Below, piece after piece: positions 24,383 to 29,558 of a DNA stretch of 32,000 nt. The stretch's first letter is position 1. Each line of letters opens with the position of its first letter. The stretch is from NCBI GenBank assembly GCA_003144275.1, contig NJBF01000001.1, forward strand, positions 60,001 through 92,000. Reading direction: 5' to 3'. The stretch is from Candidatus Heimdallarchaeota archaeon B3_Heim (GTDB lineage Archaea > Asgardarchaeota > Heimdallarchaeia > Hodarchaeales > Hodarchaeaceae). A program made the translations under genes and the position numbers. The notes beneath the pieces are model-generated. The model was not told the origin of the DNA. It saw nothing but the letters and a program-made list of their open reading frames with translations, and did no database searches.

Positions 24383-25030
24383 ATGGAATTAGGAAAATTG
24401 ACCATAGAACCAACAGCCAAAGACGATATGCCTCCATCCTTATCATTTGACATGTCAATGCCTCAACTAGTAGTAGAAAAGCCATTAGCATCAGAGATTT
24501 TTGAAAACGGGTATTTTGGTCATTGGACATCAGATAATACGCTCTGCTTAGATCCTGAAGAAATCTTATTGCTTCTTGATAGAGGGAGAATAGTCTTAAA
24601 ATTGAGTGAATCTGATGAAAATATTGCATCTGAGGATCTAGTTATTCATTTTACAAATCTAAATCCAAATTTTTGGAGTCGCTATTTGGTGTATAAGGAT
24701 TTACGAAATCGTGGTTATGTGGTAAGCATTGGAACTCGGATTACAGCACCATTTAGAATATATTCAAGAGGGGGAAAACCTGGGGAATCTGCGAGTAAAA
24801 CAGTTATTTATCCTATTCCTGAAGGTGAAGATGTTAATCTTGACCTTCTTGATCAAATCGTAAAACAAGCAAAAATTGATAGAAAAAAGTTATTGCTATC
24901 TGTAATAGACAGGTTAGGTGATGTAACTTACTATCAAGCCTCCCAACTAGAACTAGAATATAACAATTTAGAATATGAGTTTAGGGACGAAATTTCTCCT
25001 CCTAACAATAGTGAGAATGGTGAAGAATAA
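24383..25030 (+). CDS. endA: tRNA-splicing endonuclease-like subunit (EndA family), possibly non-catalytic
   Basis: GYFG...LDPEEILLL N-domain; YLVYKDLRNRGYVV, FRIY, RKKLLLSVID and VTYY C-domain; catalytic His not found. Confidence 0.8.
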   Translation: MELGKLTIEPTAKDDMPPSLSFDMSMPQLVVEKPLASEIFENGYFGHWTSDNTLCLDPEEILLLLDRGRIVLKLSESDENIASEDLVIHFTNLNPNFWSRYLVYKDLRNRGYVVSIGTRITAPFRIYSRGGKPGESASKTVIYPIPEGEDVNLDLLDQIVKQAKIDRKKLLLSVIDRLGDVTYYQASQLELEYNNLEYEFRDEISPPNNSENGEE

Positions 25031-26898
25031 TGGATGGGAGATTTATTTTTGAATCTGAGGATAATCGTTATGTTCCTGATACCTCTGTGGTCATAAACGG
25101 AGGATTAAAAAAACTACTCGTCGATGACAGGATAGAGCCTGGTTCTACTATCACCATTCCGATTGCGCTTCTTGCCGAACTTGAAAATCAAGCGAATCTG
25201 GGAGAGAGAGTTGGTTTAATAGGTCTGGAACAATTAAAGTCTATTAGAGCTACATGTGAACAAAAACAAATTTCTTTTACCATGGGGGGAAGAAAACCTC
25301 GTCAATTCGAATTAGGGGAAATTGATGCCTTAATACGTGAATTGGCATGGAAGGAAGGTGGAACTCTGATTACTTCTGACAATATTCAAAATTTGAGTGC
25401 TCAATCAATGGGTGTTAAAACCCTATTTATTGAGTCAAGAACTCTAATACAGTATGATAAGCGATTGAAGATTGATCAGTACTTTGATAATGAAACTATG
25501 AGTATTCATATAAAACAAGGGACAAATGTATTTGTGAAGAAGGGCATACCAGGTACCGTTAAGTTTATACAATTCTCCTCCGAAATAATCACGAAAGAAG
25601 TAATTATTAATTATGCTGATGAGATTCTTGAGAAGGCAGCTTACTTTCCAGATACTTTTATTGAAATTGACAGAAAAACATCAACCATTGTCCAATATGA
25701 AGACAGACGGATTGTAATAACTCGTCCTCCATTTTCTGATGGTTGGGAAATTACTGCCGTTCGACCATTGAAACGAATGTCGTTAGAAGAGTATGGCCTT
25801 TCATCCCGTTTAAACCAACGTCTTGAAGAAAAGGCAGAAGGGATTTTGGTCGCAGGAAGTCCTGGAGCAGGAAAAACAACTTTCACACGTGCTTTAGCTC
25901 TTTTTTATTCTGATAAAGGAAAAATCATTAAGACTATTGAATCTCCGAGAGATTTAGATCTCAAAGTAGAAATTACCCAATATTCAAAGAACTTCGGTAC
26001 CCACTCCGAAATTCATGATATTCTGTTATTATCTAGACCAGATTATACCATTTTTGATGAAATTCGTGATCGTGACGATTTCCGTTTGTACACAGATCTA
26101 CGTTTATCTGGAATTGGGTTAATAGGAGTTATTCACTCCAGTACAGCGATAGATGCAATACAAAGATTTATTGGGAAACTTGAATTAGGAATAATTCCTA
26201 GTGTCCTTGATACGATAATATATATCGATTCTGGTCAAATACAGACCATTTTGGACGTAAAGATGACGGTAAAGGTTCCTTCAGGGTTAGTTGAGAGTGA
26301 CCTTGCTCGACCAGTAATTGAAGTGAGAGATTTCTTAACTGGAAGTGTAGTATATGAAATGTACACATTTGGAGAACAAACAGTTGTAATACCTTTGCAA
26401 AATACTGATTATACTACAAAAGAAGTCAAACCTGAACGTTTATCTGAGATAAAAAGTATCGTAGAACAATATACAAGCCAATCGGTTGAAATTGTTCCTA
26501 AAGATAGATATGGGCATCGTTTCGAAATACACGCACATAAAGAAGATATACCTATTGTGATTGGGCAAAAAGGAGTCACAATTAAGAAGTTAGAACGAAT
26601 CCTCAATGTTAAACTTGATGTGAATAAATCTCATAACTTGCATAGTACTGGTTTAGGCCGCCTAACGCGTCAAAATATTGCTTTTCACAAACGTACCATT
26701 ACCATTAGTTTTCCTAAACGAATTAAAAACCGAGAAATTCGTTTCTTTTTTCAAGAATCTGATGATTCCTCCCCTGTCGAATTTTTTACAGCCACTACAT
26801 CTAAATCAGGAAAAATTAAGCTCGCAACCAATAGTGAAATTGGGGAAATCTTCCAGAAGGCTTTCAAAGATGAAAACCTATCTTTACACTGGAAATGA
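25030..26898 (+). CDS. PINA-type ATPase (PIN domain + P-loop ATPase + KH domain)
   Basis: VPDTSVVI and ELENQAN (PIN); GSPGAGKTTF, IESPRDL and FDEIR (ATPase); IVIGQKG.TIKKLE (KH). Confidence 0.9.
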   Translation: MDGRFIFESEDNRYVPDTSVVINGGLKKLLVDDRIEPGSTITIPIALLAELENQANLGERVGLIGLEQLKSIRATCEQKQISFTMGGRKPRQFELGEIDALIRELAWKEGGTLITSDNIQNLSAQSMGVKTLFIESRTLIQYDKRLKIDQYFDNETMSIHIKQGTNVFVKKGIPGTVKFIQFSSEIITKEVIINYADEILEKAAYFPDTFIEIDRKTSTIVQYEDRRIVITRPPFSDGWEITAVRPLKRMSLEEYGLSSRLNQRLEEKAEGILVAGSPGAGKTTFTRALALFYSDKGKIIKTIESPRDLDLKVEITQYSKNFGTHSEIHDILLLSRPDYTIFDEIRDRDDFRLYTDLRLSGIGLIGVIHSSTAIDAIQRFIGKLELGIIPSVLDTIIYIDSGQIQTILDVKMTVKVPSGLVESDLARPVIEVRDFLTGSVVYEMYTFGEQTVVIPLQNTDYTTKEVKPERLSEIKSIVEQYTSQSVEIVPKDRYGHRFEIHAHKEDIPIVIGQKGVTIKKLERILNVKLDVNKSHNLHSTGLGRLTRQNIAFHKRTITISFPKRIKNREIRFFFQESDDSSPVEFFTATTSKSGKIKLATNSEIGEIFQKAFKDENLSLHWK

Positions 26899-26945: not shown

Positions 26946-28625
26946 TTATTCTTCTTTGAAAATTTCTCTTAGACGACGGAGTTCTTTCAGCATTTCACCC
27001 CGTAATTCTGCGATGCTGGTGGACCTTGCATCAGCGATCAAATCGAGAGGAGAATCACTTGCTTGTCCAGTAGGCATTACAGGTTCAGGTACTGTCGGTG
27101 ATGGGGGAGGAACACTTGCTGAAGGCATTGGGGGGGAAGTCACGGGAGGAGTGGATGGTGGGGGAGGAGGAGAGGTTGGAAGGCCAACAGGTTGAGATTG
27201 TACTGACGGCACTTTTGGAATCGCTTTTGGTGAAGGTGTTTCACCCAATACAGAATCAAATAGAGCACCAACCTTATCAGCTTCTGGAGTCCCAGGTTTT
27301 GCCTTTCGAAGGCTACCAATTTTTGTTTTGTAAGATTTGATTCGTCCTTCATAGTGCTTTACTAATGATTCATACACTCTAGGTCGAAACTTATCATCCC
27401 TTAAAGCTTCTTTGAACTGGTTTATTAGGTTACTTTCATTCTTACTCAATATGTCGAGATATGTGACCATTTCCGTTGGAGTAGTTTTTAAATCAAGGAA
27501 AGAATCGGTAGAAATATCTGATGTCTGGAAATCCCCACTAACTTCTTCTGTCTCGAAGTAAAGTACTGAAGTAATGAAAATCATTGAAACTAATGAGAAC
27601 ATTGTTCCGTACATAAACATTACATCCCACGAGTAACCCAAGAAAGTATAGTCTAGATTTGACAAATTGAGCAATTCTTGTACTTGGGAAGATGATGATA
27701 AAACAAGCATAAATGACATTAATGCCATAAAAAATCCGATTAGTAATGTTAGGAACCAAACTAGTTTTAATTTATCTAAAATACCACTAAATTTTCTCGA
27801 ACTGGAAAGAAAAGCCGCAGTTGAGAGCAATAATAAGCTTCCAAATGAATACAACACATACCATTCAGTATCAAGAACCAAACTTGATTCAAGTATATCA
27901 ATACGAATAAGAAGTGAAAGAAGAACTATTACAAATCCAATCACAACTCCAATTAGCCAGAGTATCCTTGTATTGTCGAGAAAACTTCGAAAACGTTGAC
28001 TAGCGGATATTAATGAGGGAAAAACACCTAAAATTAGGAATATACCACCACTCAAAAATAGAACATCCCACGAAGTACCTCCAATTAGTGGTATCGCTGT
28101 GAGTAAATCATCGATGTAATGGCCATATGCCAACATAGACGCTATTTCTAGAATCAATCCTATCGCTATTAGGGATAAATATAGAAATTTGAGATTCCAT
28201 AAGCGTTCACGATCACGAACACCAAATAATAGTGGTAATAAACTCACACAGAAGACTACACCAGAAAGAATGAAGTAATCAAACCAAATGGTAATTTCTG
28301 TGTCAATCGCAGTTACAAAACCACCATAAACTAACAATGAATAAATAATGCCTAAAATACTGATACTGAATAAGAGTATTAAATGAGGATATATCTTCTT
28401 TACACTCATTTTCCCTCTGGCATCCATCACTGACAATGAAGGTAAAGCCGTTATGATTGTCAAGTAAAAGCCGAAAGCAAATAAGATTTTATAATCTAGA
28501 CCTATCAGCAATCTATCTGCTGAAGCTACGCCAGAATAGTAGAAAAAACCTAGTACAATGCTGAAAATACCAATTACTGTAAGTGTGAGAAGTCCTCTTG
28601 ACGTTTTTACAAATGTTTCTCTCAA
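26946..28625 (-). CDS. Polytopic membrane protein (about 10-11 TM) with cytosolic coiled segment, polyproline tract and terminal amphipathic helix
   Basis: Repeated hydrophobic spans over the first ~355 aa, then PTSPPPPPSTPP... and SIAELRGEMLKELRRLREIFKEE; TTG start with AAGGAG upstream. Confidence 0.72.
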   Translation of the reverse strand: MRETFVKTSRGLLTLTVIGIFSIVLGFFYYSGVASADRLLIGLDYKILFAFGFYLTIITALPSLSVMDARGKMSVKKIYPHLILLFSISILGIIYSLLVYGGFVTAIDTEITIWFDYFILSGVVFCVSLLPLLFGVRDRERLWNLKFLYLSLIAIGLILEIASMLAYGHYIDDLLTAIPLIGGTSWDVLFLSGGIFLILGVFPSLISASQRFRSFLDNTRILWLIGVVIGFVIVLLSLLIRIDILESSLVLDTEWYVLYSFGSLLLLSTAAFLSSSRKFSGILDKLKLVWFLTLLIGFFMALMSFMLVLSSSSQVQELLNLSNLDYTFLGYSWDVMFMYGTMFSLVSMIFITSVLYFETEEVSGDFQTSDISTDSFLDLKTTPTEMVTYLDILSKNESNLINQFKEALRDDKFRPRVYESLVKHYEGRIKSYKTKIGSLRKAKPGTPEADKVGALFDSVLGETPSPKAIPKVPSVQSQPVGLPTSPPPPPSTPPVTSPPMPSASVPPPSPTVPEPVMPTGQASDSPLDLIADARSTSIAELRGEMLKELRRLREIFKEE

Positions 28626-29140
28626 AAAATAAATCTCCTTATCACAAGTTCAGATAAATCTGTTTAGGAATAAGTCTAATACCTACTAATATAAGTCTAG
28701 TCTTATATCAAATATTGTTGCTTTGCCGACAAAAAGTCAGTATTTAGAATAATTTCAAGAATTTCGACTCCTTCTTGAGTAAATGAAGCATTTTTCGATT
28801 TATACCGACAAGGAATTATCCTCGCAAAAACTACTATCAAGATAACTAATAAAATTACAATTTTAAACATAAGGAAATAGTTTTTTGACCAAATTATTAA
28901 ATAGATCTAATATTAAGGCTTTTAATAAATTAGATTTTTATGTTATCAGAGGTTTTTTAGGAAATATATCAAACTTCAAGAAAAGATCAAAAGACAATAT
29001 TAGAATTTCAGAAAAATGATGGAAAACTTCATCCTAGAGTTTAGTAACTCCAGAAAAGCATATTAAGAGTATGCAGATATCAAAAGATATGATAAGAACG
29101 ATATAATCTAATAAGGACTAATTAGAACCCGAATTAAATA

Positions 29141-29257
29141 GCCGGGGTATTCTAGTCCGGCAGGAAGCATGCCTGGAAATATCATGATAAGGATTCATCC
29201 TTTCAACTATAAAGCATGTGCTCTTTGAGCTCGAGAGTTCAAATCTCTCCCCCGGCG
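29141..29257 (+). tRNA. tRNA-Ser(GGA) with ~34-nt intron at position 37/38 (about 29179-29212)
   Basis: Acceptor GCCGGGG/CCCCGGC-G, anticodon stem CATGC/GCATG with loop CT-GGA-A|A, variable arm GCTC-TTT-GAGC, T arm GAGAG-TTCAAAT-CTCTC. Confidence 0.92.
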
Positions 29258-29558
29258 CTTAATTCTGAATATTTCAGCCATCTAGATGTAATAATTATAA
29301 ATTGAAGATATTTACAGCAATTATTAGGAAATCTTCTATTTGAAAATCTCCTTTCAGAAGTTGGAGGAAACCGTTGAGTTCACCTGCATCAAATCTCGCA
29401 AAAAGCCACAATCTAATGAAATCGCGATATGTTCGTAACCATAATATAGGGTATTCAAACTCCTTTTCAACCAGAGGAGAATAGCAAAACGGATAACCCC
29501 TTAAAGTGTTTGATGTTCAAACTATTCATTATTAAACAAATATTAGTAGGAATGAATT

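Follow-up and report, generated by a model that had tools for sequence, protein, structure and literature searches.

P0001, a protein of 559 residues encoded in the 32,000-nucleotide stretch of Candidatus Heimdallarchaeota archaeon B3_Heim DNA that was analysed (hereafter the window), is a member of a pan-Asgard group of proteins characterised by a helical hairpin, a proline-rich arm and an end helix. All the features of this group are present in it: the C-terminal motif, the disordered Pro-rich arm and the homologous hairpin. Its membrane part probably serves as an anchor that presents the end helix, as a docking helix, to a conserved cytosolic partner. No description of a module composed of these three elements was found in the literature searched.

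Asgard archaea are equipped with actin, profilin, gelsolin and ESCRT. In the literature searched, no factor is named that links any of them to the membrane, nor any nucleation or elongation factor. A peptide of ~21 residues, near-unchanged across the phylum, carried on a flexible arm and often anchored in the membrane, would be a ready-made bait for a conserved hub of cell organisation. Knowing the partner would show whether such membrane tethers are of actin-type or of ESCRT-type ancestry. Even with a mundane partner, the protein family would still define a short linear motif specific to Asgard archaea and a five-repeat membrane domain, both of them new.

The gene and its locus

The gene occupies positions 26946..28625 of the window, on the minus strand, as do all the features of the protein given below. 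It opens with a TTG start codon (28625-28623) and closes with a stop codon at 26946-26948. A Shine-Dalgarno-like AAGGAG (28635..28640, minus strand), read off the sequence, is located 9 nt ahead of the start. The encoded protein has four parts, namely 10 transmembrane (TM) helices, a cytoplasmic helical hairpin, a Pro/Ser/Thr-rich arm and a C-terminus of 35 aa.

The genes around it are archaeal housekeeping genes. Those for S13, S4 and S11 are found upstream, in divergent orientation. Downstream, and convergent, are the genes for a PIN-ATPase-KH protein (PINA) and a tRNA-intron endonuclease homologue (EndA), followed by L3 and L4. This order, with the 559-aa gene between S13-S4-S11 and PINA-EndA, is conserved in two relatives at a protein identity of only 41-43%.

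A word-indexed search of 5.8 billion proteins returned ~40 full-length relatives. Those with an organism name all come from Hodarchaeales, Heimdall-type or other Asgard metagenome-assembled genomes (MAGs), the closest named ones being Hodarchaeales. The first-pass annotation, made from the sequence alone, had inferred an Asgard host, and this was therefore right.

The membrane domain

In the AlphaFold2 (AF2) model of the protein, built on 22 relatives, residues 1-362 (27540..28625) form ten membrane helices, which are confidently predicted, with pLDDT mostly of 80-92. The multi-TM N-terminus proposed earlier is thereby confirmed, and it resolves into five tandem 2-TM repeats of ~70 aa each: u1 (28410-28625), u2 (28203-28409), u3 (27990-28202), u4 (27783-27989) and u5 (27540-27782). 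The units are mutually related, with hhalign probabilities of 60-97% between repeats, and the neighbouring pairs u2-u3, u3-u4 and u4-u5 all reach 92-97%.

In terms of topology, 15 Lys and Arg residues are counted in the loops with a predicted cytoplasmic location, versus 1 in the opposite loops. The protein is therefore oriented N-in/C-in, and its whole tail is cytoplasmic. As for the identity of the domain, no Pfam family was assigned to it, with the whole protein and both halves searched. Neither Foldseek against the PDB nor an ESM Atlas search by shape yielded a meaningful fold match.

The hairpin and the proline-rich arm

Residues ~380-445 (27291..27488) form a cytoplasmic helical hairpin in the AF2 model, which corresponds to the helical segment noticed in the first-pass annotation. 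Its turn carries the invariant pattern FK.A.R.DKFRPRV and is identical in all 22 aligned relatives. Homologous hairpins occur in the single-TM and in the distant 10-TM proteins with this tail, aligned by hhalign over 65 columns in register at a probability of 94% (E 1.2e-7). What is conserved as a unit is thus the hairpin together with the arm and the end helix, and in the 559-aa protein this unit is joined to a large membrane domain. A wide structure search with the hairpin returned generic helical hairpins and designed helical repeats only (Z 8-9.6), and matches to PDB sequences were all at noise level.

The arm, rich in Pro, Ser and Thr, spans residues 462-524 (27054..27242) and is predicted to be disordered by pLDDT below 50; values of this kind extend over residues 443-530 in the AF2 model. 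It has 63 aa, with 37% Pro and 67% Pro, Ser, Thr or Ala. The Pro-rich tract singled out earlier lies within it, at residues 482-509 (27099-27182). The tract is present as claimed, but polyproline runs are not conserved: the longest run has 3-6 residues, and at least 5 in only 7 of the 22 relatives.

Across these same 22 relatives the composition of the arm is conserved, with 32-46% Pro and 65-83% Pro, Ser, Thr or Ala. Its length varies between 62 and 90 aa, and its sequence is not alignable. The arm thus behaves as a flexible spacer, and not as a series of profilin sites that is kept among the relatives.

The C-terminal end helix

The end helix comprises residues 525-559 (26949..27053), with a pan-Asgard core at 536-556. 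The terminus highlighted in the first-pass annotation, RGEMLKELRRLREI, corresponds to residues 542-555 (26961-27002), and its conservation proved to be complete: the last 35 residues are identical in 22 of 22 aligned relatives, at overall identities of 41-93%. AF2 predicts one continuous helix of 33 residues (526-558), with pLDDT of only 56-70.

The conservation pattern was scored on 24 diverse tails, that of the 559-aa protein and 23 others. L541 and M545 are invariant, and R542, E548, L549 and R551 are each conserved in at least 92%. Variation is limited to heptad positions c and f, and a hydrophobic 3-4 spacing (3-4-4-3-4) reaches right to the end. With only c and f varying and the other positions conserved, the pattern is, as read from the aligned tails, the signature of a continuous helix that would be buried on most of its sides, either within a groove or as part of a bundle.

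A membrane-targeting amphipathic helix was also considered and rejected. The net charge of the tail is zero and its two Glu residues are fixed, which argues against a helix that binds membranes. In a search of PDB sequences with the tail, the sole match was a designed toroid repeat.

Distribution of the module across Asgard archaea

Exhaustive searching of 1.84 billion cluster representatives with HMMER recovered further 10-TM proteins, which are 25-33% identical in the membrane part. These have longer arms with many GPP and PPMPP repeats, followed by a 24-residue core of the end helix that is kept despite the low identity elsewhere. The search also returned P0069, a soluble protein of 344 residues with three tandem copies of the motif. 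The B3_Heim genome itself has a second carrier, a soluble protein of 257 residues (contig C70:345-1118).

Of 301 Asgard genomes sampled throughout the phylum, 147 contain the motif by tail profile; the 559-aa protein scores 69.8 bits against tail profile A2 (E 8e-19). The motif in the profile matches is always at the extreme C-terminus, directly after a Pro-rich arm. The heads of the carriers differ, and consist of ten TM helices, of one TM helix with the hairpin, of a soluble N-terminal helix, or of the type seen in the C70 protein. Most genomes outside the B3_Heim genus contain a single strong tail carrier.

In 5.8 billion proteins, the tail profile matched 348 at E<=1. Among the 120 matches listed, every one with an organism name is from Asgard archaea, including an Odinarchaeum protein, and none of the 120 has a Pfam domain. 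A motif equally common in lineages lacking actin would have spoken against the first-pass reading; among the named ones of these 120 it is confined to Asgard archaea.

Members of the group are so far unnamed, such as OdinLCB4_007640 and hypothetical proteins of Hodarchaeales, Heimdall, Thor, Loki and Sif MAGs. The 559-aa protein shares with them the same motif and arm and, in the membrane forms, a homologous hairpin. It differs in its head, which is the 10-TM five-repeat domain and not a single TM helix or a soluble coil. This head is found in Hodarchaeales and a few related lineages.

Some families gave few matches or none. In family f11 the motif was detected by profile A2 in 1 of 76 genomes, and by A5 only as a weak match (E 0.0026) in one of two genomes. 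No genome with the motif was found by profile search in f24 (0 of 7) or f21 (0 of 5). Actin, Vps4/MIT and EAP30 are near-universal in the phylum, including the families where the motif was not found, and for this reason the phyletic comparison singles out none of the three. The families f11, f24 and f21 have actin, Vps4 and EAP30, so the docked partner does not universally need the motif.

A proposed docking helix at the membrane

The analysis shows the anatomy and topology of the protein, its conservation, the re-use of the cassette as a module and its confinement to Asgard archaea; docking, and the identity of the partner, are inferred. In the mechanism that we favour, the polytopic anchor, whose five 2-TM repeats leave both termini in the cytoplasm, carries the cassette made of the hairpin, a Pro-rich arm of 60-90 residues and the end helix. 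The end helix would be a short docking peptide, a continuous amphipathic helix with about two thirds of its surface buried, and would bind a groove of a conserved soluble Asgard protein. Docking would hold or capture this partner at the membrane, the arm giving it reach. The tail could also be regulatory and not a recruiter.

In terms of the partner, an actin-family protein is a tentative candidate. An ESCRT component, either the MIT domain of Vps4 or an ESCRT-II-family paralogue, is a slightly less likely one; these two lead the candidates at nearly equal odds. Another tail, through self-association, would be a surprise. The rest of our expectation falls on something else, not yet considered.

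Self-association would make the end helix an oligomerisation coil, with tails that bundle together and cluster their carriers, a caveat already attached to this helix in the first-pass annotation. VASP, for example, has a C-terminal tetramerisation coil. The hydrophobic spacing and the conservation of positions a, d, e and g are compatible with such a coil, and the three tandem copies of P0069 could form a bundle. Against this, the invariant E548 sits in a core position, and in many carriers an N-terminal coil or hairpin distinct from the tail is already present. Coils of homo-oligomers would also seldom be this constant across a phylum. Furthermore, the presence of only one strong carrier in most genomes outside the B3_Heim genus argues for an external partner over tail-to-tail pairing of paralogues. 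We consider an oligomerisation coil improbable, and a docking helix for another protein remains the preferred reading.

Comparison with WH2 motifs, actin and profilin

The original proposal was a tether that gathers profilin-actin through its Pro tract and binds G-actin through a WH2-like terminal helix, the whole being a membrane-tethered actin assembly factor with the logic of WASP and VASP. Several of its elements hold, namely the membrane anchor, the cytoplasmic Pro-rich arm, the conserved terminal helix and the Asgard context. The WH2 identity and a conserved polyproline do not, and as a whole this proposal appears doubtful.

The likeness to systems that combine WH2 with a proline region (WASP/WAVE/WIP, and the GAB region of Ena/VASP) lies in the order of the parts, with a Pro-rich segment followed by a short amphipathic terminal helix that bears three hydrophobic residues near the C-terminus. 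Here these are M545, L546 and L549, conserved in 20-24 of the 24 tails. Tandem copies are possible, as those of P0069 recall tandem WH2 arrays, and the lineage has actin; the B3_Heim genome was found to contain one, as supposed, at contig C100:11318-12424. The GPP and PPMPP repeats also make the arms of the distant 10-TM relatives much more FH1/VASP-like. The limitation of the motif to Asgard archaea, among the named ones of the 120 matches listed, is consistent with an actin partner as well.

Kinship with WH2, on the other hand, is not detectable. The Pfam WH2 model (PF02205) gave no match for residues 370-559 even at E<=10, and its six-frame scan of the genome returned nothing at the locus and one noise match elsewhere (E 2.3). 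No WH2 chain was matched by the tail among PDB sequences. The L-basic-basic-T/V pattern (LKK[TV]) is conserved in neither of its two candidate registers across the 24 tails. In the register 549-552 the tail reads L-x-R-L, with the second residue free; in the register 555-558, two hydrophobic residues are followed by variable ones.

A WH2 motif ends its helix with a small residue, whereas the tail has Leu or Ile there, at L552, in 24 of 24 sequences. The 3-4 spacing continues past this site to the end, AF2 predicts a single 33-residue helix without the break, and ~21 residues are conserved on most of its faces. The tail is not a member of the WH2 family, and may, by analogy, work like such a motif.

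As for profilin, the polyproline binding invoked in the first-pass annotation has indeed been published, and is weak: one Heimdall profilin binds polyproline with a KD of 0.3-3.3 mM, and several others do not bind it (PMC8410842). This favours the proposal in kind, but affinities in the millimolar range count against it, as do the polyproline runs of the arm, which are not conserved. The Pfam profilin model had no match in the B3_Heim genome, nor in any control genome, and is uninformative.

A further possibility is that the end helix is an Asgard-specific peptide which binds an actin-family protein and is unrelated to WH2 in sequence. Together with the arm, it would make the protein a membrane-anchored factor for actin assembly or attachment. 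Between families the tail is 55-71% conserved, nearer to actin (73-84%) than to MIT (27-35% identity), which may point to a very conserved partner. Family f11, however, keeps an actin that is 73% identical and is without the motif, bar the matches given above. We hold this version to be unlikely too.

Comparison with ESCRT-III termini and CdvA

The ESCRT machinery offers another set of partners. The C-terminal half of the tail would then be a MIM1-type helix for the MIT domain of Vps4, or the tail would engage a winged-helix protein of the ESCRT-II family, and the protein would be a CdvA-like recruiter or an ESCRT client. We would not expect this to be the case, although several observations point to it.

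In the B3_Heim genome the ESCRT-III (Snf7) genes adjoin Vps4, whose MIT domain spans residues 1-80, on contig C10, and the ESCRT-III protein of Vps2/24/46 type ends in a helix of the form hydrophobic-x-x-E-L-x-x-(L/I)-K. The extreme C-termini read LQKELEKIK in B3_Heim, LEAELEGLK in family f3 and LEKELNRLK in family f14. In the literature, C-termini of this kind are described as MIM1-like and as binding the MIT domain of Vps4 (PMC7240154).

Residues 545-553 of the tail (M-x-x-E-L-x-x-L-R) fit this pattern, with hydrophobic residues at i, i+4 and i+7, then a basic residue, and Glu at i+3. Of the 2951 long ORFs of the genome, only 11 show the pattern within their last 25 residues, including ESCRT-III and both tail carriers. 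The position is also alike, since MIM1 of the ESCRT-III proteins Vps2/24/46 (CHMP1-3 class) is found at the extreme C-terminus after a flexible linker. At the level of short motifs, the resemblance of the tail to MIM1 is equally good as that to WH2.

Other observations speak against this link. The eukaryotic MIM1 consensus, (D/E)xxLxxRLxxL(K/R), is not matched by the tail as a regular expression; the Asgard variant with Glu at i+3 is. The tail does not belong to an ESCRT-III protein, as no Snf7 domain was found by Pfam in the 559-aa protein, and its conserved stretch is twice as long as MIM1. Its profile scores ESCRT-III termini only at noise level. Furthermore, the tail is far more conserved than the MIT domain, and also than genuine ESCRT-III termini, which vary from one family to the next. 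Vps4 is retained in families f11 and f24, where the motif is missing but for the f11 matches given above.

CdvA of Thermoproteota, a membrane-binding recruiter of ESCRT-III, shares with the 559-aa protein the attachment to the membrane, a hairpin or coil, a flexible linker and a short conserved C-terminal peptide. Superposition of the hairpin on the filament subunit of S. islandicus CdvA gives a Z of 8.9, which is within the range of generic hairpins; hairpins of CdvA and ESCRT-I are among the fold matches, and these are generic as well. The Pfam CdvA coiled-coil model (PF18822) matched the hairpin of one out of ten relatives, below the cut-off (E 4e-5). It had no match in the 559-aa protein or its locus, and returned noise only in a scan of the genome. 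The PRC barrel of CdvA was not found in the protein. Asgard ESCRT-III is not known to have the winged helix that the peptide of CdvA binds.

Gene neighbourhoods of tail carriers

The neighbourhoods of the carriers point both ways, to an actin paralogue and to an ESCRT-II-family paralogue. In four Loki-type genomes of three genera, an actin paralogue is encoded 0.5-2 kb downstream of a soluble coiled-coil carrier, with both on one strand, in support of an actin partner. This paralogue is 44% identical to the main actin, and a PIG-L-family gene stands between it and the carrier in 3 of the 4 genomes.

On the ESCRT side, the single-TM carrier of family f4, which is of the same class as B3_Heim, is the closest relative of the cassette of the 559-aa protein. 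An EAP30-family (ESCRT-II-type) paralogue is located directly upstream of it in three genomes of two genera. Individually these associations carry little weight, since the genomes that share each of them are related.

Within 1.5 kb of 30 actin loci and 30 Vps4 loci, no motif-bearing ORF was found, except for a weak match on an ESCRT-III terminus. The neighbourhoods of P0069 and P0063 contained nothing telling. Lastly, a gene for ribose-5-phosphate isomerase is located directly downstream of the single-TM carrier in representatives of families f3, f4, f9 and f19.

Architecture and genomic context of the 10-TM tail protein

The protein encoded at 26946-28625 of the window (reverse strand, 559 aa) joins a 10-TM domain to a helical hairpin, a Pro-rich arm and a conserved end helix, the tail. 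In the HMMER search of 1.84 billion cluster representatives, the relatives P0049, P0052, P0061 and P0066 (370-383 aa) carry the 10-TM domain and lack the hairpin, arm and tail, so the membrane domain also occurs alone. This genome has one copy of the 10-TM tail protein, whereas several genomes of the same genus carry a tandem pair of paralogues spaced by about 2.2 kb (G208, contig C38, 21688-24037; G217, contig C1, 1329869-1332183; G136, contig C8, 82821-85195; G262, contig C169; G214, contig C152).

The gene is adjoined by a pair encoding a tRNA-intron endonuclease homologue (24383-25030) and a protein with PIN, secretion-type ATPase and KH parts (25030-26898), an arrangement that is conserved in relatives. 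Within the pair, the start of the second gene coincides with the end of the first. The approximately 930 bases between the 10-TM tail gene and the S13 gene (28626-29558) hold no ORF of 100 aa, and ARAGORN found no tRNA in the entire window.

Other carriers of the end helix

A second carrier in the same genome, conserved within the genus, is a soluble protein of 257 aa on contig C70 (345-1118, reverse strand; 348-1118 in locus L004). Its tail is 46% identical to that of the 559-aa protein. The tail is preceded by a long Pro-rich arm and, at the N-terminus, by a domain of about 100 aa that has no annotation.

The soluble protein P0069 (344 aa; locus L123, 6001-7035; NCBI MAG GCA_048885365.1) contains three copies of the motif in tandem, one about every 41 residues, and its C-terminal part beyond them is helical. 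This triple-motif type is on record as a single copy.

Gene neighbours of other carriers

In Loki-type genomes, a soluble end-helix protein, a PIG-L-family deacetylase and an actin paralogue follow one another on the same strand as a conserved string of genes (L130, L131, L132 and L049, from G008, G030, G019 and G147), with the deacetylase absent from the G008 version. Single-TM carriers (L050, L129 and contig C207 of G036, family f4; L038, L051, L054, L127, L128) have ribose-5-phosphate isomerase A directly downstream in four Asgard families, and in f4 a divergent EAP30 (ESCRT-II family) paralogue directly upstream. Soluble carriers adjoin Rce1-like CAAX protease genes in two families and an ICMT-type methyltransferase gene in one (L047, L048, L053). 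In eukaryotes, these two enzyme types process prenylated proteins.

ESCRT-III-like C-termini

Lastly, two adjacent genes on contig C19 of the same genome (148-1510, reverse strand) encode proteins (221 and 234 aa) that each have a C-terminal helix with hydrophobic-x-x-E-L/I-x-x-I-K, matching the pattern of the ESCRT-III termini.
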